Part shown: positions 4,979 through 59,170 of the stretch, in pieces | Layout: the number at the start of each line of letters is the position of its first letter | How positions within the stretch are numbered: position 1 is the first letter of the stretch | DNA from: Dehalococcoidia bacterium | GTDB lineage: Bacteria; Chloroflexota; Dehalococcoidia; Bin125 | Direction: 5' to 3' | Assembly (NCBI GenBank): GCA_965209205.1 | Contig: CBDBQC010000004.1 | Span: 902,167 to 966,166 of the forward strand | DNA length: 64,000 bases | Notes under the pieces: model-generated | Database searches by the model: none | What the model was told of the DNA's origin: nothing | The model's input: the letters and a program-made list of their open reading frames with translations, nothing else | Made by a program: the position numbers and the translations under genes

Positions 4979-5903
4979 GCGCCCCGCCGCACAACCCACT
5001 GCGAAGTGACCCCGCGCCGCACCAGCCGGTGATGCGCGACGAAGCGCTGGCCTACCTGAACGTGCGGCCCGGCGGACGCTACATCGATTGCACGACCGGG
5101 GCCGGCGGCCACAGCGCCGCGATCCTGGACGCCTCGGCGCCGGACGGGCGCCTGCTCGCCAACGACGCCGACCCGGCCGCTCTGGCGGTCGCGCGGGAGC
5201 GCTTGGCCGGCTACGGCGACCGGGTGCGCTTCACGGAGGGCTACTTCGACGAGATTACGGGCAGCACCGGCGCGGCGGGCATCGTCCCGGCCGACGGCGT
5301 GCTGCTGGACCTGGGCGTGTCGAGCATGCAGCTCGAGACGCCCGAGCGGGGCTTCTCCTTCCGGGAGCGCGGCCCCCTGGACATGCGCATGTCGCCGGCG
5401 ACGGAACTGACCGCCGCGGCGATTGTGAATGAATACGAGGAGGCCGATCTGGCCGACCTCCTCTACCGCCTTGGCGATGAGTGGCGATCGCGCCGCATCG
5501 CACGCCAGATCGTGGCTCGCCGACCGTTGGCGACCACAACGGATCTTGCCAAAGCCGTCGAGCAGGCTGCGGGGAAAGGCCGCAAAGCCAGTACTTCTAG
5601 TAGAGTTCACCCCGCCACCAAAACCTTTTTGGCCCTTCGCATGGCGGTCAACCAGGAGCTTCGGCGCCTGGGCGACTTCCTTGCCCTGGCCCGCAGCCTG
5701 CTCGGCTTTGGATCCCGCCTCGTCATCATCAGCTTCCACTCGCTGGAAGATCGACTGGTCAAGCAATTTCTCCGCGACGCGTCGCAGGGCGACGCGCCCG
5801 CGTTCCGGGTGCTGACCCGCAAGGGGTGCGTCCCAGCGCCGCCGAAGTGGAGCGCAACCCTCGCAGCCGCAGCGCGCGGCTGCGAGCGGCCGAGGCGCGT
5901 TAG
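4975..5903 (+). CDS. rsmH: 16S rRNA m4C1402 methyltransferase RsmH, with an apparent -1 frameshift near 5821..5826
   Basis: The ATG overlaps the mraZ stop (ATGA). HQPVMRDEALAYL, TTGAGGHS, DLGVSSMQL and FHSLEDR are present. The conserved C-terminus VRPSAAEVERNPRSRSARLRAAEAR-stop is in the next frame after the run aagggg. Confidence 0.85.
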
Positions 5904-5905
5904 CC

Positions 5906-6355
5906 GTGCCCGGCGCACAGGCCATGCCGTTGCCAGTGGCGCGGCGGGCCGCGATGCGGGTCCCCCCGCCGATTCGTCGTGCGCGGCTGCCGCTGTGGGT
6001 TTGGGTGGGGGTCGTGGGGCTGGCGATCGCCGCCGCCCTGCCCGTGCTGCAATCCAGCGACGCCACAGCGACCGGCGCCGCGCTGCGCGATCTGGAGCGC
6101 CAGCGCGCCGCGGCGCAGGCCGAGGTCCGCGAGCTGGCCTCGCAGGTCGGCGAGCTGACATCGCTGGACCGCGTCGCCGCGGTCGCCGAGACGCGGCTGG
6201 GGCTCACCCCGGCCCGCCCAACCGTTCTGCTCACGGTCGATACGGCGCCACCGGAGCGCCTGCTGCCCGCCCGATTTCTCCCGCGGCGGGAGGCGGCCGT
6301 TCCGGAGAGCGCTGCCTGGTGGCAGCGCCTGCTGGAGGCGTTGATCGTGCGTTAG
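5906..6355 (+). CDS. ftsL: cell division protein FtsL-like
   Basis: Position between rsmH and ftsI. Single TM helix (LPLWVWVGVVGLAIAAALPVL) followed by a coiled-coil (LRDLERQRAAAQAEVRELASQV). Start uncertain: GTG at 5906 or ATG at 5924. Confidence 0.7.
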   Translation: MPGAQAMPLPVARRAAMRVPPPIRRARLPLWVWVGVVGLAIAAALPVLQSSDATATGAALRDLERQRAAAQAEVRELASQVGELTSLDRVAAVAETRLGLTPARPTVLLTVDTAPPERLLPARFLPRREAAVPESAAWWQRLLEALIVR

Positions 6356-6464
6356 GTCGTGCGACGGGGAACGGCGCGGCGGGCTGGTCGTGCGGCCGCA
6401 GCGCCGGGAGTTGGTTCCGCCGGGGGCGCATCGCCTGGCCGCCGGCGGGCAGGAGTGAGGAGTC

Positions 6465-8354
6465 ATGGAGCGGGCAGGGCTCAGTCCCTGGCGACTGCGT
6501 CTCGTGGCGACGATTTTCGTCGTGTTCGGGGTGCTGCTCTGCCTGCGGCTGGTACACGTCCAGATCCTCGATCACCCGCAGTTCGAGGCCGAGGCCCACG
6601 ACGCGCACTTCTGGGCGCAGGAGGTGGCCGGGCCGCGCGGCGCGATCCTCGATCGCAACGGGCTGCCGCTGGTGACGGGGGTCGACACGTTCGAGATCCA
6701 CGTCGACCGCGAGGCCTGGGAACTGGAGCCGCGCAACGAGCGTCAGGCGGTGCAGGAGTTGTCGCGGCTGCTGGGCGTCGATCAGCAAACGATCCGCGCG
6801 GTGGTGGGGACGGGCGGGGGCCGCGACATCCTGCTGGCGCTGAACGTGCCGTTCGCGCTGGGCGAGACGATCACGGCGGCGGGGCTGCCGGGAGTGAAAG
6901 TGACGCCGGCCAGCCTGCGCCGGTACGCGGAGGGCGGGCTGGCGAGCCAACTGCTGGGCTTCGTGGGCCGCGACAACCAGGGACTCTCGGGTGTGGAGTT
7001 CGACTTCGACACGATTCTGGCCGGCAGCCCGGGGCTGCTGGTCTTCGAGCGCGACAGCATCGGCAACCCGATCCCGTTCGGGGCGCAGGCGCAAACCGAG
7101 ACCGAGTCCGGGGCCGACCTGGTGCTGACGATCGACAAGGGCCTGCAGCGCATCGCCGAGCAGCACCTGGCGCAGGCGCTGGCCGACACCGGCGCGCGCG
7201 GCGGCTCGATCCTGATGATGGACCCCAACACGGGCGACATCCTGGCGCTGGCGGCCTCGCCGACGTTCAACGTCAAGGAGTTGAACCTGGCCGACCCGGG
7301 CACCGACTTCTCGCTGATCCGCAACCGCGTCGTCACCGACATGTACGAGCCGGGCTCGGTGTTCAAGGTCTTCACGATGGCGGGCGCGATCGACGCGGGC
7401 GTGGTGTCGCCCTACACGACGTTCATCGATACCGGCGCGATCGTCGTGGGGGCGCGGACGATCCGCAACTTCGACCTCTCGTTCCACGGCGAGCAGACGA
7501 TGACGCAGGTCTTGCAGCGCTCGCTGAACACGGGCACGGCCTGGGTGGCGACGGAGATGGGCGCGTACCGCTTCTACGACTACGTGACCGCGTTCGGCTT
7601 CGGCGACGTGACGGGCTCGGGCATGGCCGGGGAGTCGCCGGGCATCCTCAAGCAGCCCGGCAACCTCTTCTGGTCGGAGGTCGACCTGGCGACCAACTCG
7701 TTCGGGCAGGGCATCTCCGTGACGCCGCTGCAGATCGTGCGGGCCTACGCCGCGATCGCGAACGGGGGCGAGCTGCTGCGGCCGCGCATCCTGCGCTCGG
7801 TGATTACGAAGGACGGCGTGCAGGACTTCCCGGTCGTCAGCGACGGGCGGGTGATCAGCGAAGAGACCGCGGCCAGCGTGCGCCGCATGATGCAGGCGGT
7901 GGTCGACGGCGTCAGCGGGCACCCGGCGCAGACGCCGGGCTGGCCGGTGGCCGGCAAGTCGGGCACCTCCGACGTCGTCGAGAACGGCGTCTACCTGGAG
8001 GACGAATCGATCGCGTCGTTCGCGGGCTTCGCCCCAGTCGACGACCCGCGCGTCGTGATCCTGGTGAAGCTCGACCGGCCGCAGGGGGAGATCTTCGGGG
8101 GCGTCGTCGCGGCGCCGGTGTTCTCGGCGCTGCTGGCCGACGTGCTGCCGGCGCTGGGCGTGCATCCGTCGTCGTACGTGGCGCAGCCCGACCTCTTCGA
8201 CGGCGCGCCGGGCGAGACGGCGCCGGTGGCGGACGCGACCGCGTCGGGCGCCGACGCGGCGGCGGACGGCGTCGAGGTCGCGGAGCCGCTGACGGAGGCG
8301 GATCGCGATACGGAGACGGGCGGCGCGGAGCCGGAGGGAGCGGGAGCGGGATGA
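6465..8354 (+). CDS. ftsI: penicillin-binding transpeptidase FtsI/PBP2 class
   Basis: GGAG Shine-Dalgarno sequence and an N-terminal TM helix. Motifs GSVFK (SxxK), SLN (SxN) and KSGT (KTG-like) are present. Confidence 0.9.
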   Translation: MERAGLSPWRLRLVATIFVVFGVLLCLRLVHVQILDHPQFEAEAHDAHFWAQEVAGPRGAILDRNGLPLVTGVDTFEIHVDREAWELEPRNERQAVQELSRLLGVDQQTIRAVVGTGGGRDILLALNVPFALGETITAAGLPGVKVTPASLRRYAEGGLASQLLGFVGRDNQGLSGVEFDFDTILAGSPGLLVFERDSIGNPIPFGAQAQTETESGADLVLTIDKGLQRIAEQHLAQALADTGARGGSILMMDPNTGDILALAASPTFNVKELNLADPGTDFSLIRNRVVTDMYEPGSVFKVFTMAGAIDAGVVSPYTTFIDTGAIVVGARTIRNFDLSFHGEQTMTQVLQRSLNTGTAWVATEMGAYRFYDYVTAFGFGDVTGSGMAGESPGILKQPGNLFWSEVDLATNSFGQGISVTPLQIVRAYAAIANGGELLRPRILRSVITKDGVQDFPVVSDGRVISEETAASVRRMMQAVVDGVSGHPAQTPGWPVAGKSGTSDVVENGVYLEDESIASFAGFAPVDDPRVVILVKLDRPQGEIFGGVVAAPVFSALLADVLPALGVHPSSYVAQPDLFDGAPGETAPVADATASGADAAADGVEVAEPLTEADRDTETGGAEPEGAGAG

Positions 8355-16962: not shown

Positions 16963-18074
16963 GCCACCGCCGTACGTCTCCCGATCGGTCGCAGCCGCTG
17001 CGCATGGCGGTGCTCTTCGGCGGCGCCTCGACGGAGCACACGATCTCCGTGCGATCGGCGCGGGCCGTCCTGGCGGCGGCCGACCCGGCGCGCGTCGCCG
17101 CGGCCCCGATCGCGATCGGGCGCGACGGCTCGTGGCGCGACGCCGCGGCCTCGCGGGCGCTGATCGCGGCGATCGATCGCGGCGCGCCCGAGTGCGTGCC
17201 GCCGGCGCCGGGCGACCGCGGCGGCCTGCTTGCCGCGCCCGCGGCGCTGTCGGCGCTGGCGGATGCCGATGTCGTCTTCCCGCTGGTGCACGGCCAGACC
17301 GGCGAGGACGGCAGTCTGCAGGGGCTGCTGGAGCTGTGCGGCGTCCCCTACGTGGGCGCGGGCGTCGCGGCCTCGGCGATCGGCATGGACAAGGCGCTGA
17401 TGAAGGCGCTCTTCGCGAAGGCCGGGCTGCCGCTGCCGCGGACGCGGGTCGTCACGGCGGCGCAGTGGGCGTCGGGGCGGGAGTCGCTCGAGCGCGAGTT
17501 GGCGTCGCTGCCGATGCCGCTGTTCGCCAAGGCCGCGAACGGGGGCAGCAGCGTGGGCGTCGTCAAGATCCACGACCGCGAGGAGATCGGCGCGGGTGTC
17601 GCGGAGGCGCTGCGCTTCGACGCGAAGGTGGTCGTGGAGGAGGGCATCGAGGGGCGCGAGATCGAATGCGCGGTGCTGGGGCGTCCGGCCGCCGACGGCG
17701 GCGGCGCCGAGGCCACGCCGCCGGGCGAGATCCGCACGGCGCGCGACTTCTACGACTACGTCGCCAAGTACGAGGACCCGGCGACCGAGCTGATCCTGCG
17801 GCCGGGCCTCGCCCCTGGGGTCGCGGCGCGGGCGCAAGCGCTCGCGGTGGCGGCGTTCGAGGCGATCGGCTGCGCCGGCTTCGCGCGGGTCGATCTCTTC
17901 CTGCGCGGCGAGGACGAGTTGTTCGTCAACGAGATCAACACGCTGCCCGGCTTCACCAGCATGAGCATGTTCCCGCGACTCTGGGAGGCGGAGGGGCTGG
18001 CGTTCCCGGCGCTGATCGAGCGGCTGGCGCGGCTGGCGCTGGAGCGCGCCGAGGGGAGGCGAGCCCATGCCTGA
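16959..18074 (+). CDS. ddl: D-alanine--D-alanine ligase
   Basis: ATGA overlap. AVLFGGASTEHTISVRSA, HGQTGEDGSLQG and VNEINTLPGFT are present. Confidence 0.9.
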   Translation: MSHRRTSPDRSQPLRMAVLFGGASTEHTISVRSARAVLAAADPARVAAAPIAIGRDGSWRDAAASRALIAAIDRGAPECVPPAPGDRGGLLAAPAALSALADADVVFPLVHGQTGEDGSLQGLLELCGVPYVGAGVAASAIGMDKALMKALFAKAGLPLPRTRVVTAAQWASGRESLERELASLPMPLFAKAANGGSSVGVVKIHDREEIGAGVAEALRFDAKVVVEEGIEGREIECAVLGRPAADGGGAEATPPGEIRTARDFYDYVAKYEDPATELILRPGLAPGVAARAQALAVAAFEAIGCAGFARVDLFLRGEDELFVNEINTLPGFTSMSMFPRLWEAEGLAFPALIERLARLALERAEGRRAHA

Positions 18075-18098
18075 CCCCGCGCGGCCCAACCCCTTCAA
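18053..18098 (+). repeat. 46-bp direct repeat copy 1 spanning the ddl stop / next-gene start junction
   Basis: Sequence ggggaggcgAgcccatgcctgaccccgcgcggcccaaccccttcaa, 45/46 identical to 19392..19437. Confidence 0.9.
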
Positions 18099-19413
18099 GC
18101 GTGACGAGGTGGAGGCGGCGATCGACCGCTGGCGTGAAGCGGATCTGATCTCCGAATCGACGGCCGACGCGGTGCGCCTCTTCGAGCGCGCACGGAGGTC
18201 GGCTGGTCCGGCCGCGGGCGCGGCGTCTCGGGTCGCCGACGCGGGCGCCGTGCTCGGTGTGGCGTTGGTCGTGGCGGCGGCGTTGGTACTCGCGTTCGGC
18301 CAGTTCGAGGGGGACTTCGGGGCCCGCATGGCGGTGCTGGGCATCGCCGGCGTGGTCGTGCTGGTTGCGGCCGGCGCGGCGCGGCGCCTGCAACTGGCGG
18401 CGACATCGGACGCGCTCGCAGGCGCCGCCGTGCTGCTCTTGACGATCTGCGTGGTCGCCGGCCTCGAAGAACTCGGCGACCCCGGCGACGAGGGCATCGG
18501 CTGGGCGCTGACCTGCGCCGCGGGCGTGGTGATCGGCGCCGCCGTCGCGTGGTGGACGCGTTCGCGGTCGGCCGCCGTGCTGGCGGTCCTGGCCTGGGTC
18601 GCGCTGCCGGCGGCGCTGCTCGTCAGGGAAGGCACCGGCGGCGACCCGTTCGAGGGCCCGTTCGACTACCAGGCGTCGGCGGGCCTGGCCTGGGCGGCGC
18701 TGGCGCTGATGGTGGCCGCGGCGGCGGTCGCGGCGGTCGGCGCGCAGTTCGCGGCGCGGCGCGGCTCGCTCGGCGGCCGCGTCGATCGCGACACCGCGGT
18801 GTGGATCGCATTCGTTGCATCGGCGGTGCTGACGGTAGCGCTCGTCGTCGTGGCGATCGGGCAGGACCAGCGCGGCTTCTACGCCGCCGTGGCGGTGGGG
18901 GCGGCCGCGGCCACGGGGATCGCCGTATGGCGGCGCGAGTGGGTCTGGTTGCCGTCGGCCGCCGGGCTGTACTTCGCGGCCTGCGGCTTCGCCCTGGGCG
19001 GGCTCGGCGAGCCGGAGGGGCGAGCGCTGGGCGTGGCCGTGTTGGTGATGAGCTTCTTCACGTTCGCGCCGCTGGCGCGACGGCTGCCGGGCCACTGGAT
19101 GACGCGGGTGTGGGAGCTGGTCGTGTGGCTGATGGCGTTGTGGGTGGCATCCTGGTTCGCCTTCGAATCGGCCGGCTGGCCGGCGGTCGGGGGCGTGTGG
19201 GCGGCGGCGACGATGGTGGCGGCGGCGATGCTGCGGCGCTGGCCGGCGCTGGCGGTGGGCGCGCTGGGGTTGTACGTGACGTTCCTGGCCGTCGTGATCG
19301 AGACGTTCGATGCGAGCGTCGGCGCCGGTTTCGGCACGCTGCTGTTCGGCGTGCTCGTGCTGGCCGCGGCGATCGCCTGGCGGCGACGAGCGGGGAGGCG
19401 GGCCCATGCCTGA
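18067..19413 (+). CDS. polytopic membrane protein, DUF2157-like
   Basis: 448 aa. Soluble N-terminal segment (VEAAIDRWREADLISESTADAV) followed by about 10 hydrophobic helices. Both termini are encoded inside the 46-bp repeat copies. Confidence 0.75.
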   Translation: MPDPARPNPFKRDEVEAAIDRWREADLISESTADAVRLFERARRSAGPAAGAASRVADAGAVLGVALVVAAALVLAFGQFEGDFGARMAVLGIAGVVVLVAAGAARRLQLAATSDALAGAAVLLLTICVVAGLEELGDPGDEGIGWALTCAAGVVIGAAVAWWTRSRSAAVLAVLAWVALPAALLVREGTGGDPFEGPFDYQASAGLAWAALALMVAAAAVAAVGAQFAARRGSLGGRVDRDTAVWIAFVASAVLTVALVVVAIGQDQRGFYAAVAVGAAAATGIAVWRREWVWLPSAAGLYFAACGFALGGLGEPEGRALGVAVLVMSFFTFAPLARRLPGHWMTRVWELVVWLMALWVASWFAFESAGWPAVGGVWAAATMVAAAMLRRWPALAVGALGLYVTFLAVVIETFDASVGAGFGTLLFGVLVLAAAIAWRRRAGRRAHA

Positions 19414-19437
19414 CCCCGCGCGGCCCAACCCCTTCAA
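19392..19437 (+). repeat. 46-bp direct repeat copy 2 spanning the membrane-gene stop / ftsQ start junction
   Basis: Sequence ggggaggcgGgcccatgcctgaccccgcgcggcccaaccccttcaa. Confidence 0.9.
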
Positions 19438-20395: not shown

Positions 20396-21649
20396 ATGGC
20401 CAGAGGCAGCGCCATTGCGGCGATCGATCTGGGCAGCACGAAGATCGCCACCATCGTGGGCGATACGTCGGACGCGGGGATGCTGCGCATCCTGGGCGCC
20501 GGCGTCGTGCCGTCCGCGGGGATCGAGAAGGGCCAGATCAGCAGCATCGGGCAGGCGACGGAGGCCATCAACGCCTCGATCGAGAAGGCGGAGCGGGCCT
20601 CGGGCACGCGCATCCTCTCGGCGGGCGTGAGCGTCTCGGGCGCGCACCTGTCGTCGCTGAACAACCGCGGCATCGTGGCCGTGCCCGACGTGGGCCGCCC
20701 GATCAGCGTCGATGACGCGCAGCGGGTGATCGACGCGGCGCGCAACGTGAGCCTGAAGAGCAACCGCGAGCTGATGCACGCCCTGCCGCGCTACTTCGTC
20801 GTCGATGGCCAGGACCGGGTCTCGGACCCGGTGGCCATGCACGGCCAGCGCCTGGACGTCGAGATGCATATCGTCACCGGCGGCGTGAACGCGCTGCAGA
20901 ACGTGATGAAGTGCGTCGAGGGCGCGAACGTGCAGGTCGAGGCGCTGGTGGCGGGGCCGGTCGCGATGTCGGCGGCCGTGCTCGACCCGGAGGAGCAGCA
21001 GGAGGGCGTGGTCGCGATCGACATCGGGGGCGGCACGACGGACATCGCCGTGCACCTCGACGGGGCGATCGTGCACACGGCCTCACTGCCGATCGGGGGC
21101 ATGCACGTCACGCGCGACCTGGTCGCCGGGCTGCGCTGCCCCTTCATGGTCGCCGACCAGGCGAAGATCCGCTACGGCGCGGCGCTGTCGGCGGCGGTCC
21201 CCAAGGACGAATCGGTGGCGCTGACGGCCTTCGGGCAGGACGAGCGCCGGGAGGTGTCGCGGCGGCTGATCGTCGAGATCGTGGAGGCGCGGGTGGAGGA
21301 GATCCTCTCCATGGCGCTGGGCGAGGTGAAGCGGGCGGGCCACCTCGAGGCGATCGCGGCGGGGCTGGTGATCGGGGGCGGGACATCGGAGTTGGAGGGC
21401 ATCACGACGCTGGCGGAGCAGCGCACGGGCCTGCCGGCCCGCATCGGCCAGGTGCCGGAGGTCTACGGCCTCGCCGACCAGGTGGCGGGCCCGGCCTACG
21501 CGACCAGCCTGGGCGTGTTGCGCTGGATGACGGAAGCGTTCGTCGTACCGATGGGGCAGCCCTTGCGGCTGCGTATGCCGGCGGGTGGCAGTGTCTTTGG
21601 CCTGTTCCGCAGCGTCGGCCGATTGGGGAGGGTCTTTCTGCCGCAATAG
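20396..21649 (+). CDS. ftsA: cell division protein FtsA
   Basis: AAAGGAGA Shine-Dalgarno sequence. AAIDLGSTKIATIVGD and VVAIDIGGGTTDIAV (actin-fold phosphate loops) are present. Confidence 0.9.
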   Translation: MARGSAIAAIDLGSTKIATIVGDTSDAGMLRILGAGVVPSAGIEKGQISSIGQATEAINASIEKAERASGTRILSAGVSVSGAHLSSLNNRGIVAVPDVGRPISVDDAQRVIDAARNVSLKSNRELMHALPRYFVVDGQDRVSDPVAMHGQRLDVEMHIVTGGVNALQNVMKCVEGANVQVEALVAGPVAMSAAVLDPEEQQEGVVAIDIGGGTTDIAVHLDGAIVHTASLPIGGMHVTRDLVAGLRCPFMVADQAKIRYGAALSAAVPKDESVALTAFGQDERREVSRRLIVEIVEARVEEILSMALGEVKRAGHLEAIAAGLVIGGGTSELEGITTLAEQRTGLPARIGQVPEVYGLADQVAGPAYATSLGVLRWMTEAFVVPMGQPLRLRMPAGGSVFGLFRSVGRLGRVFLPQ

Positions 21650-21743: not shown

Positions 21744-22832
21744 ATGTCTGGATACGACGATCGCAGTGGCCTGCCGCCGATCAAGGTGATCGGGGTGGGC
21801 GGAGGCGGCTGCAACGCCGTCAATCGGATGATCGAGGAGGGGATCACCGGGGTCCACTTCCTGGCGGTGAACACCGACGCGCAGCAGCTCGAACACAGCC
21901 GCGCGCCGGAGACGATGCGCATCGGCGACCGCGTGTCGCGGGGGCTGGGCGTCGGCGGCGACGCGGCGCTGGGCGAGAAGGCCGGCGACGAATCGCGCGC
22001 CGACCTGCTTGAGTCGGTGCGCGGGATGGACATGGTGTTCGTCGCGGCCGGCATGGGCGGCGGCACCGGGACGGGCGCGGCGCCGGTCGTGGCCGAGGTC
22101 GCGAAGCAGGCCGGGGCGCTGACCATCGCGGTGGTGACCAAGCCGTTCGCGTTCGAGGGCGCCAAGCGCCGCCAGACGGCGGTCTCGGGCGTGCATCGCC
22201 TCGAGAAGCACGCCGACACCGTGATCACGATCCCCAACGATCGGCTGCTGAGCCTGGCCGAGGAGAACATCTCCGCCAGCAAGGCGTTCGCGCTGGCCGA
22301 CGACGTGCTGCGCCAGGGGATCAGCGGCATCGCCGACATGATCACCACGCCGGGCGAGATCAACCTCGACTTCAACGACGTCAAGAAGGTCATGGGCGAG
22401 GGCGGTCAGGCGCTGATGGCGATCGGCCGCGGCGCGGGGCCGAACCGGGCCGTCGACGCGGCGCAGGCGGCGATCGCCAGCCCGCTGCTGGAGACCGACA
22501 TCACGGGCGCCCGCAAGGTGCTGTTCAACGTGGCGTCGGGCGGCGACCTGGGGCTCATGGAGCTCAACGTCTCGGCCAAGGTCATCCAGGAGATGGTCGA
22601 CCCGGACGCCGAGATCATCTTCGGGACCGCGGTCAAGCCCAACCTGGGCGAAGAGATCATGGTCACCGTGATCGCCACCGGCTTCCCGGGCCACTCGACG
22701 ATCGAAGAAGAGATGCCCGTCGCCGTCGAAAACGACCGCTGGTCGCCCGACCTGCTGGACGAGATCGGCCTGGACGGCGACGACGTGGAATTGCCTGCCT
22801 TCCTGCGCCGGCGACGCGTCGCGGCGCGGTAG
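21744..22832 (+). CDS. ftsZ: cell division GTPase FtsZ
   Basis: IKVIGVGGGGCNAVNRM, GMGGGTGTGAAPV and NLDFNDV are present, plus the C-terminal peptide DDVELPAFLRRR. Confidence 0.97.
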   Translation: MSGYDDRSGLPPIKVIGVGGGGCNAVNRMIEEGITGVHFLAVNTDAQQLEHSRAPETMRIGDRVSRGLGVGGDAALGEKAGDESRADLLESVRGMDMVFVAAGMGGGTGTGAAPVVAEVAKQAGALTIAVVTKPFAFEGAKRRQTAVSGVHRLEKHADTVITIPNDRLLSLAEENISASKAFALADDVLRQGISGIADMITTPGEINLDFNDVKKVMGEGGQALMAIGRGAGPNRAVDAAQAAIASPLLETDITGARKVLFNVASGGDLGLMELNVSAKVIQEMVDPDAEIIFGTAVKPNLGEEIMVTVIATGFPGHSTIEEEMPVAVENDRWSPDLLDEIGLDGDDVELPAFLRRRRVAAR

Positions 22833-58100: not shown

Positions 58101-58135
58101 CGCGGGGGCGGGGACCGGTCAACCGATGGGGCGTC
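58101..58135 (+). repeat. 35-bp direct repeat copy 1 (cgcgggggcggggaccggtcaaccgatggggcgtc)
   Basis: Identical to 59136..59170. An 11-nt cagtgtcgcgc lies immediately upstream of this copy (58093..58103, its last 3 nt overlapping the repeat) and also occurs at 59086..59096, about 40 nt upstream of copy 2. Confidence 0.9.
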
Positions 58136-58213: not shown

Positions 58214-58501
58214 ATGACAATGACCTTCGACACGCGCCGGGCCGTGCAGAAGCTGGTCGGGGTCGGGGTTGACGACAGCCACGCCGACGCGATCGTCGAG
58301 GTGGTCGGAGACGCCACGAGCCCGCTGGTGACGCGGGATATCCTGCGGGCGGAGCTCAAGGATCTGCGGTCGGAGCTAAAGGCGGAACTTAGCGAAGTGC
58401 GGGCGGAGTTCCACCGCGCCCTACTGATTCAGGCCGGCGTCGTGCTGGCGGGGGTGGCCGCGATCGCGGCGATCGCGACGCTCCTGGCCAGGCTCGGGTA
58501 A
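58214..58501 (+). CDS. DUF1640-like small tail-anchored coiled-coil protein (full length)
   Basis: MTMTFDTRRAVQKLVGVGVDDSHADAIVEVV..., then a coiled-coil and the TM helix AGVVLAGVAAIAAIATLL. Confidence 0.75.
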   Translation: MTMTFDTRRAVQKLVGVGVDDSHADAIVEVVGDATSPLVTRDILRAELKDLRSELKAELSEVRAEFHRALLIQAGVVLAGVAAIAAIATLLARLG

Positions 58502-58542: not shown

Positions 58543-58746
58543 TTACCCGGCCAACACCTCGATCGCCGCCACGCAGCTGAGAAACAGGATGGTCTGGCCG
58601 AGCAGCAGTGTGAGCGTCCACACCTTCATCTCGGACCGCATCGCGTCGAGCGCGGCCCTCATCTCTGCCCGCAACTCGTTGATCGCGACATGCAGATCGC
58701 GCACGTCCTCCTTCGTCGCGATGCTGGTGCTGACTGAGTAGGCCAT
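58543..58746 (-). CDS. 67-aa coiled-coil + TM protein (C-terminal half of the DUF1640 architecture)
   Basis: The ATG at 58746 gives MAYSVSTSIATKEDVRDLHVAINELRAEMRAALDAMRSEMKVWTLTLLLGQTILFLSCVAAIEVLAG. A 51-nt block (58669..58719) is nearly identical to 58902..58952. Confidence 0.6.
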   Translation of the reverse strand: MAYSVSTSIATKEDVRDLHVAINELRAEMRAALDAMRSEMKVWTLTLLLGQTILFLSCVAAIEVLAG

Positions 58747-58763: not shown

Positions 58764-59072
58764 TCATCCCCAGAGCACGGCTGCGATTGCGAGGCCCGCG
58801 GCCAGGAAGGCCGCCGTTGCGGCGGTATAGGCTCCGAGTTGCAGCCAGAGCAAGCGCGTGAAGCGGGCCTCCATCTGCGCCATCGCCACGGCAAGTTCGG
58901 ACCGCAACTCGTTGATCGTGACATGCAGATCGCGCACGTCCTGCTTCGTCGCCAACCCCTCCTGGGCGTCCACGATCGCCTCCACCACGCCCTCCGCCTG
59001 CTCGGCGGTGTGCCCACGCCCACGCAGCGCCCTCACCGCCTTGGCCGTGTCGAACGTGATCCCAACCATCAT
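58764..59072 (-). CDS. DUF1640-like small tail-anchored coiled-coil protein (full length)
   Basis: MMVGITFDTAKAVRALRGRGHTAEQAEGVVEAI...ATKQDVRDLHVTINELRSE..., then a TM helix. Confidence 0.75.
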   Translation of the reverse strand: MMVGITFDTAKAVRALRGRGHTAEQAEGVVEAIVDAQEGLATKQDVRDLHVTINELRSELAVAMAQMEARFTRLLWLQLGAYTAATAAFLAAGLAIAAVLWG

Positions 59073-59135: not shown

Positions 59136-59170
59136 CGCGGGGGCGGGGACCGGTCAACCGATGGGGCGTC
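59136..59170 (+). repeat. 35-bp direct repeat copy 2
   Basis: Identical to 58101..58135. It is followed by TAGGCT-cgcccg-ATG of the methyltransferase gene. Confidence 0.9.

Follow-up and report, generated by a model that had tools for sequence, protein, structure and literature searches.

A membrane-protein gene set into the ddl/ftsQ overlap of an uncultured Dehalococcoidia-class genus, probably by an ancestral insertion with a 46-nt target duplication

Gene layout at the ddl/ftsQ junction

The window analyzed here is a 64,000-nt stretch of contig CBDBQC010000004.1 (positions 902,167 to 966,166) from a Dehalococcoidia-class Chloroflexota genome (GCA_965209205.1, hereafter G000), which is metagenome assembled, 89% complete, 2.71 Mb in 4 contigs, and of ~73% GC content. 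Its division and cell wall (dcw) cluster contains, between ddl and ftsQ, a gene for a 448-aa polytopic membrane protein, so that contiguous mur, ddl, and fts genes follow one another on the + strand in the order murC-murB-ddl-insert-ftsQ-ftsA-ftsZ (Table 1). Genes were identified with Pfam and NCBIfam scans, alongside a listing of open reading frames (ORFs).

The membrane-protein gene is bracketed by a 46-nt direct repeat, GGGGAGGCG(A/G)GCCCATGCCTGACCCCGCGCGGCCCAACCCCTTCAA, the two copies of which are identical at 45 of 46 positions and start 1339 nt apart; when the repeat is extended by three bases, to 18101 and 19440, 47 of 49 positions are identical. This pair had been reported in an earlier reading of the letters alone (the sequence-only reading) and was confirmed here both by reading the window and with a repeat finder. 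The 36-nt core of the repeat, with ≤3 mismatches allowed, has exactly two matches in the whole 2.71-Mb assembly (reversed control, 0), and therefore the repeat is not a member of a dispersed family. By our own estimate, in which the per-base match is ~0.30 at 73% GC, ~1e-12 chance pairs of such quality within 6 kb would be expected genome-wide, and a chance origin of the pair is negligible.

Both junctions of the gene are formed by an identical 8-nt overlap, ATGCCTGA, with GGAGG upstream at a spacing of 7 nt, and at the first of them the ddl stop codon TGA (18072-18074) sits 2 nt past the ATG of the next gene. Each repeat copy also contains the opening of ftsQ, namely codons 1 to 10 in full and two bases of codon 11. 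The chimeric termini described in the sequence-only reading (ends in RRAHA, starts in MPDPARPNPF) were found as claimed: GRRAHA is the shared C terminus of Ddl and the 448-aa protein, and MPDPARPNPF is the shared N terminus of the 448-aa protein and FtsQ. Copy 1 is now the translation start of the inserted gene, and its upstream flank runs on from ddl as it does at the unoccupied junctions of three relatives (G002, G005, and G006, below), while the downstream flank of copy 2 (ccggggctcgttcaccgag...) runs on into ftsQ, again as at the empty sites.

The segment between the copies has no start codon, stop codon, or noncoding DNA of its own and is fused in frame to both of them. One supported coding ORF fills its 1293 nt, and the remaining long ORFs across it are alternative frames of 75% GC DNA; its GC content is 0.753, compared with 0.742 in the flanks. 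The coupling features found at both junctions (GGAGG, 7 nt, and then ATGCCTGA, with the Shine-Dalgarno sequence inside the upstream gene) are of the kind seen in coupled gene pairs, and ddl, the inserted gene, and ftsQ may be co-transcribed and translationally coupled through termination-reinitiation at the overlap. Between 15.5 and 23.5 kb no promoter-like consensus sites were matched, and terminator-like matches, fewer than in shuffled sequences, were limited to one weak 5-bp stem near the 3' end of ftsA (21576-21590).

Table 1. Features at the ddl/ftsQ junction of the window, followed by the six repeat pairs tested elsewhere in G000 (positions of the latter in our own locus, L, and contig, C, numbering)
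Feature	Position	Strand	Description and support
ddl, D-alanine--D-alanine ligase, 371 aa	16959..18074	+	Ends ...AEGRRAHA-TGA; Dala_Dala_lig_N/C (E = 1e-28, 2e-60); NF002528 380 bits, cut-off 262
Repeat copy 1, putative ancestral ddl/ftsQ junction	18053..18098	+	GGAGG 18055-18059; ATG 18067-18069; ddl TGA 18072-18074; codons 1-11 of former ftsQ
Inserted gene, 448-aa polytopic membrane protein	18067..19413	+	MPDPARPNPFK...RRRAGRRAHA-TGA; residues 1-11 probably from FtsQ, last 6 (GRRAHA) probably from Ddl
Unique inserted segment, 1293 nt (431 codons)	18099..19391	+	Residues 12-442 of the membrane protein; alignment and family search
Repeat copy 2	19392..19437	+	GGAGG 19394-19398; ftsQ ATG 19406-19408; insert-gene TGA 19411-19413; ftsQ codons 1-11
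ftsQ, 302 aa	19406..20314	+	Starts MPDPARPNPFN; POTRA_1 (E = 1.6e-15), FtsQ_DivIB_C (E = 2e-4, above gathering score)
ftsA	20396..21649	+	ATG start chosen to match the 417-aa product called in relatives; ORF opens at TTG 20339
ftsZ	21744..22832	+	Tubulin/FtsZ_C in orthologous loci
162-nt repeat (3 mismatches)	L027:1007-1168/2137-2298 = C2:36306-36467/37436-37597		Duplicates last 53 codons and stop of a gene; 968-nt insert, GC 0.58 vs 0.73
86-nt repeat	L028:1036-1121/2001-2086 = C1:114635-114720/115600-115685		879-nt insert; Gp49-like toxin and HTH_3 antitoxin
85-nt repeat	L029:1017-1101/4760-4844 = C4:672616-672700/676359-676443		Contains -10-like TATACT and a start codon; 3.7-kb insert; 942-aa fn3 protein and DUF2442
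54-nt perfect repeat	L030:931-984/2451-2504 = C4:682430-682483/683950-684003		Near a gene 3' end; 1.47-kb insert; 467-aa fn3-like protein
48-nt perfect repeat	L031:1049-1096/3768-3815 = C3:17848-17895/20567-20614		2.67-kb insert (GC 0.57); 782-aa pentapeptide-repeat/AAA-like protein
44-nt perfect repeat	L032:1059-1102/1899-1942 = C4:309058-309101/309898-309941		796-nt insert

Empty and occupied junctions in relatives

The junction was compared in six other species of the same genus (G001 to G006) and in four other genera (G008, G010, G020, and G024). In G002, G003, G005, and G006, and outside the genus in G008, G010, and G024, murB-ddl-ftsQ-ftsA is contiguous and insert free; in G020 ddl and ftsQ are contiguous, and ftsA is in two pieces. 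The genomes G002, G005, and G006 contain the single junction GGGGAGGCGGGCC(C/G)ATGCCTGAGCC..TTCAAccgg with the overlap ATGCCTGA, and the junction of G003 is the equivalent overlap GTGCCTAG. When one repeat and the 1293-nt unique segment are dropped from the G000 sequence, the junction type of G002, G005, and G006 results, which supports the proposal of the sequence-only reading that such a deletion would recreate a clean overlap.

G001 and G004 also have the insert at the ddl/ftsQ junction, flanked by the two repeat copies, and their membrane protein is 90 to 91% identical to that of G000; the same structure was found in a further independent assembly (locus L042). At the occupied orthologous sites gene callers placed the 8-nt overlaps identically. 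The membrane protein belongs to a 90%-identity cluster of 33 members encoded on contigs of up to 2.9 Mb. Comparison of junctions had been suggested as a check on the insertion, and among the genomes compared no relative carries the membrane-protein gene between ddl and ftsQ with unrelated termini.

A maximum likelihood tree of Ddl and FtsQ (LG+G4, 1000 ultrafast bootstraps) has the topology ((G000,(G001,G004))100,((G005,G006),G002)100)98, with G003 basal. On this topology a single gain, in the common ancestor of G000, G001, and G004, is the most parsimonious history. The single-junction relatives, together with homologues of the membrane protein that lie in a different, conserved neighborhood, argue for insertion with target duplication, as had been proposed from the duplicated junction. 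We therefore consider it very probable that the core of a membrane-protein gene was inserted ancestrally into the ddl/ftsQ overlap with a 46-nt target duplication and that it has since been kept while the repeats undergo conversion.

Two features of the annotation touch on these loci. An alternative + frame upstream of the insert-gene start (17132-18148) is open for ~1 kb owing to the high GC content. One 1113-aa member of the cluster (P0053) was considered as a fusion protein and rejected, the gene call having run through an open alternative frame (out-of-frame murB/ddl); this type of annotation artifact is one to watch for in the insert-bearing clade.

Homologues and the direction of the chimerism

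In alignments and an exhaustive search, homology within the membrane-protein family spans residues 12/13 to ~441-446 of the G000 protein. Homologues lack the ends that the G000 protein shares with its neighbors; they open with M(I/S/A)(L/F)(R/W)R..D (MILRRGGD..., MSLWRRDD...) and close with WRRR and an unrelated tail. Because homology is confined to the core, the first 11 and last 6 residues of the G000 protein would be the copied parts. The N terminus of FtsQ, for its part, is kept as MP(D/E)P.RP.PF(N/T)RG in relatives without the insert. On this comparison the FtsQ N terminus and the Ddl C terminus appear as the ancestral ones and the ends of the inserted protein as borrowed. The insertion had also been called precise, and this was borne out, since the segment matches one ORF core and is in frame at both ends.

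The family was found in 8 of the 24 genomes searched for it and is single copy in G000. In five loci of other genera, the membrane-protein gene, in one or two tandem copies, is accompanied by two divergently transcribed PGM/PMM genes, an alpha/beta hydrolase gene, and a DUF2332 gene; none of these five loci lies in a dcw cluster, and none has such repeats. The search for a native context that the sequence-only reading had suggested thus recovered a shared PGM/PMM-hydrolase-DUF2332 setting in other genera, and it identified neither a donor nor a native site in G000, where no orthologues of the alpha/beta-hydrolase and DUF2332 neighbors and no emptied site were found. The insert is 55% identical to its homologue in G024, and between the same two genomes the identities are 51% for ddl, 59% for ftsQ, and 55% for murB. 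Since the identity of the insert matches that of the housekeeping genes, nothing points to a recent transfer out of the genera sampled; a resident gene may have been relocated, or the gene may have come from a lineage just as distant.

The genus g8 contains the membrane family as two tandem paralogues (L038:3974-5305 and 5808-7049). At L039:5202-6076 the second copy is reduced to fragments and is probably a decaying pseudogene.

A hydropathy scan and the secondary structure of an AlphaFold2 model predict a cytoplasmic helical N-terminal domain of ~58 aa, ~14 transmembrane helices, and a tail rich in Arg. As the terminus of such a tail, the borrowed GRRAHA would fit a location on the cytoplasmic side under the positive-inside rule. 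The family is very small: a search of 1.84e9 proteins found 36 representatives. The label DUF2157-like given in the sequence-only reading proved weak: the only Pfam match, to DUF2157 (PF09925), scored 18.1 bits (E = 0.0023) over residues 20-133 only, the gathering score being 32.4, and assignment of the protein to DUF2157 was rejected on that threshold. An NCBIfam scan of the protein gave no match, and a profile search for further homologues of the family returned nothing new. From its present operon context, the protein may act in the cell envelope or in division.

Age, selection, and conversion between the repeats

Pairwise Nei-Gojobori comparisons of G000, G001, and G004 gave synonymous divergences (dS) of 0.16-0.25 for the insert, 0.15-0.20 for ddl, and 0.11-0.18 for ftsQ, with ratios of nonsynonymous to synonymous divergence (dN/dS) of 0.17-0.22, 0.22-0.26, and 0.17-0.21, respectively. 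The inserted gene is under purifying selection, at a rate like that of its neighbors. As the insert is common to a clade of three GTDB species (bootstrap 100; dS of 0.11-0.25 among them), the insertion predates their split, and the description of the event as recent could not be maintained.

In the 24 nt past the overlap, the two G000 copies are identical to each other, and each is 2-3 sites off its orthologue in G001 and G004. Copy-versus-copy differences in the same stretch number one site in G004, one in L042, and three in G001. The stretch is not strongly constrained, as G000 and the empty G002 junction differ at 7 of its 24 sites. Among 14 strain variants (90% clusters), the membrane protein starts with MPDP followed by ARP (8), ARL (3), TRL (2), or TRP (1), and FtsQ starts, after MPDP, with TRL (10), ARP (1, G000 only), GRL (1), or GQL (1); variants of the two proteins were assigned to one contig from its length alone. 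At both codons the insert variants are confined to ftsQ states (A/T and P/L), G and Q occur in FtsQ only, and in the G000 FtsQ two codons have switched together to the version of the insert. We read this pattern, drawn from few sites, as a probable sign of gene conversion that has acted repeatedly, over short tracts, between two copies separated by 1.3 kb.

A crossover between the repeats would delete the gene, and the insert is retained in every listed member of the cluster; such retention fits selection for the gene. The locus is thus a natural system in which 46-nt repeats have long been converting without deletion of the 1.3 kb between them, which indirectly suggests a benefit from the captured gene.

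Recombination between the repeats also opens another history, in which the insertion is older than the subclade, dating from the base of the genus or earlier, and genomes with a bare ddl-ftsQ junction are revertants. The repeats do recombine, to judge from the conversion pattern, a crossover would restore exactly the empty junction observed, and the patchiness of the gene family (8 of 24 genomes) indicates that losses are common. The tree, however, then requires at least two independent precise losses (on the stem of G002, G005, and G006 and in G003) in place of one gain, and ddl and ftsQ are contiguous in 4/4 other genera examined, with the homologues lying elsewhere in a conserved context. 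Both copies, moreover, share states of the subclade (GAC, AAC) that are unlike those of the G002/G005/G006 junction, a signal that conversion could mimic. We regard this history as improbable and retain a single ancestral gain.

Other inserts and repeats in the genome

A scan of G000 recovered ~30 direct repeats that stand in isolation, are 30-162 nt long, and have copies 0.2-6 kb apart. Six pairs, with duplications of 44-162 nt, were tested, and for 6/6 a relative was found that lacks the insert and has the duplicated segment only once (Table 1). Most of these inserts are lower in GC than their flanks, and their cargo includes a Gp49-like/helix-turn-helix toxin-antitoxin pair, a pentapeptide/AAA protein, fn3 proteins, and a DUF2442 gene. 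Two of the six recur at other positions in other species with 91-92% identity.

At the site of the 162-nt repeat, G001 has one copy and no insert, and G004 has a different insert of ~2.3 kb, on account of which the site may be a hotspot. The site of the 86-nt repeat is empty in G001, G004, and G002 (~105 nt, single copy), and its insert is found elsewhere in G005 and G006 (91-92% identity). The 85-nt-repeat site is empty in G004 (108 nt, single copy); the 54-nt-repeat site is empty in G002 and has other DNA in G001 and G005; and the 48-nt-repeat site is empty in G001, G004, and G002. For the 44-nt repeat, empty sites were found in G002, G005, and G006, and the insert belongs to a multicopy family that occurs in many places in all genomes at 70-75% identity, with 91% identity at another position in G002.

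Given empty sites for the six tested inserts, the dcw insertion belongs to a process that has recurred in this lineage. It is unlike the other six in its age, in a GC content that matches the flanks, in keeping frame on either side, and in its position within an essential gene string.

Several further repeats were observed. In the window, a perfect 35-nt direct repeat (58101-58135 and 59136-59170) surrounds 1 kb with two small convergent coiled-coil genes (58214-58501, + strand; 58764-59072, - strand) that have weak CCDC90-like/DUF1640-type matches below threshold, and within them lies a nested 51-nt repeat with 2 mismatches (58669-58719 and 58902-58952). A 38-nt repeat of a tRNA T-arm and 3' end (TCGGTTCAAATCCGA...; C4:1043824-1043861 and 1044715-1044752) encloses 853 nt of low-GC inserted DNA, an arrangement that resembles the att scar left by an integrative element, either a small or a decayed one. 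A dispersed palindromic element, CCCCCTCTCCATC...GATGGAGAGGGGG, has many copies in G000 (C3:623128-623193, C3:600381-600435, C4:583258-583312, and others) and looks like a repetitive extragenic palindromic (REP)-like family. No long duplication flanks the type III restriction-modification (R-M) island at 29.3-35.5 kb of the window.

Proposed event and its mechanism

We propose that, in the common ancestor of a three-species subclade of this uncultured genus, a 1293-nt segment entered the 8-nt ddl/ftsQ overlap and that the target was duplicated over 46 nt, which would have copied the Shine-Dalgarno sequence, ATGCCTGA, and the first ftsQ codons. Both ddl and ftsQ would have remained unchanged, and the newcomer would have received the ribosome-binding site, start codon, and first 11 residues of ftsQ, along with the last 6 residues and the stop codon of ddl. 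The outcome is a chain from ddl through the new gene to ftsQ by way of two identical overlaps. Thereafter, purifying selection has acted on the gene, and the repeats have probably traded sequence repeatedly by conversion without loss of the insert. Such an event shows a route by which a new gene can enter a tightly packed, essential, overlap-joined operon without harm: through duplication of the overlap, the ends of both older genes are preserved exactly, and the newcomer is supplied with a working ribosome-binding site, a start, and a stop. It also draws attention to a rare family of membrane proteins as candidates for an envelope or division role in uncultured Chloroflexota of this group.

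Three sources of the duplication are candidates: a RecA-mediated single crossover of a circle bearing a copy of the 46-nt target; template switching during replication with a return upstream of the exit point; and a staggered double-strand break with fill-in and capture of a fragment. In connection with nonhomologous end joining, a Ku gene was looked for and not found in G000 (89% complete). The insert contains no transposase, integrase, or other mobility gene, no genome-wide integrase census having been made, and no inverted repeat that pairs the insert ends is among those reported by the repeat finder. A transposon or insertion sequence was rejected as the source, as there is no transposase, the inverted repeats reported include no terminal pair, and the duplication length is not short or fixed (46 nt here; 34-162 nt elsewhere). 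A hairpin or attC site was likewise rejected, the repeat folding no better than shuffled sequences (z = 0.58).

Several points weigh against the proposed insertion. One random event is unlikely to deliver a segment that keeps frame on both sides and approximates one ORF, and the exact fit to the ORF core implies either selection among many events or later trimming deletions. The nearest homologues outside the clade are only 55-57% identical, so that junction microhomologies and the pathway cannot be read without a donor. Dating of the duplication from repeat divergence is blurred by gene conversion. On the side of the protein, the AlphaFold2 model built from 8 sequences is poor (predicted local distance difference test [pLDDT], 64; predicted template modeling score [pTM], 0.52), and Foldseek searches against the PDB returned only designed helical repeats with template modeling scores of ≤0.33, which we take as meaningless.

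The repeats could alternatively be attL and attR sites carried in by a mobile cassette, moved by site-specific recombination with an integrase acting in trans or in an integron-like manner. Elements that integrate at the ends of genes bring along a copy of the targeted end and leave behind direct repeats of 15-100+ nt; another repeat pair in G000 duplicates a tRNA 3' end, and several other G000 inserts are toxin-antitoxin-like accessory genes. The 1.3-kb insert, in contrast, has no integrase or transposase; its repeat occurs only twice in the genome and lacks a hairpin or attC-like fold; its noncoding ends amount to zero, with in-frame fusion to both copies; and its homologues, which have no such repeats around them, occupy a conserved chromosomal context as ordinary genes. 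The duplications at other sites (34-162 nt) are a misfit for one recombinase, and their variable lengths argue against a dedicated transposase or integrase. A cassette is on these grounds very unlikely. A mis-join or expanded repeat in the long-read metagenome assembly, a possibility raised by the metagenomic origin and 4 contigs of G000 and by the sequence-only reading itself, is scarcely credible, given that at least four independent assemblies contain the structure with both copies, that orthologous copies have diverged around a gene 90 to 91% identical, that the cluster has 33 members on contigs as long as 2.9 Mb, and that the ORF is intact and under purifying selection.

Returning to the ancestral insertion, a broader and rather unlikely extension of it would be that duplication of a stop/start overlap is a general plug-in route for promoterless ORF cores, driven by a lineage-specific process, and that the captured protein is a new membrane component of division or cell wall synthesis tied to the synthesis of Ddl and FtsQ. 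Were this true, the copied 46 nt would amount to a portable module for translation initiation and termination. On this reading, the at least seven verified inserts in the 2.7 Mb of G000, with duplications of 44-162 nt and no mobility genes, would mark the route as unusually active in the lineage and hint at a dedicated or lineage-specific form of recombination.

Comparison with known systems

Of the known classes, insertion with long target duplication comes closest; it has been traced to Nobusato et al. 2000 (Gene 259:99, as cited in PMC2853133). Furuta, Abe, and Kobayashi (2010; NAR 38:2428; PMC2853133) described inserts that lie between unique duplications of >30 bp of a target that is single copy in a relative, and that contain no mobility genes; two of their examples, from Haemophilus influenzae, have 46-bp duplications that overlap the 3' end of a gene. 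They give the mechanism as unknown and suggest that DNA breaks made by the R-M enzymes of the cargo may be involved. The structural features of the class are found at the ddl/ftsQ junction: the repeats exceed 30 bp (here 46 nt), have no further match in the genome, and correspond to one copy where relatives have the empty site, the insert is shorter than 20 kb (here 1293 nt) and lacks a mobility gene, and the repeat length varies from event to event. In contrast, the cargo described for the class consists of R-M genes, which was a screening criterion of the 2010 study and not a mechanistic one, whereas the cargo here is one membrane-protein ORF that has no start, stop, or noncoding DNA of its own and is fused in frame at both ends. 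The target here is a stop/start overlap inside an essential dcw string, and the event is old and fixed in several species, with converting repeats. The present case extends the class past R-M genes, and its non-R-M cargo weakens the idea that a nuclease encoded by the cargo is the driver.

Campbell-type insertion-duplication, familiar from laboratory mutagenesis, likewise produces an arrangement of homology, insert, and homology in which both copies are intact and the repeats may later convert or excise. A length of 46 nt exceeds the minimal homology usually quoted for RecA recombination. Here it is a candidate route only, one that would call for a circular intermediate made up of just the junction and an ORF core. 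Fork stalling and template switching or microhomology-mediated break-induced replication (FoSTeS/MMBIR), described mainly in eukaryotes, can also leave an insert with a flanking duplication of variable length and needs no mobility gene, but the donor copy should persist at first, and G000 has a single copy.

Integrative elements at the 3' ends of tRNA and protein genes resemble the locus in their direct repeats over gene termini and in a target gene that still functions, but they depend on a site-specific recombinase that acts at a fixed att site, neither of which is found at this insert. The transposed genes of Arabidopsis (Woodhouse et al. 2010, PMC2869330) are reported to be single nontransposon genes that have moved and are bracketed by direct repeats; they differ in belonging to a eukaryote, their mechanism too is given as unknown, and no operon or translational-coupling context is described for them. 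Among these systems, the ddl/ftsQ insert is a case of a known but poorly understood kind of bacterial gene gain, from which it differs in its cargo, its fusion in frame, and its target.

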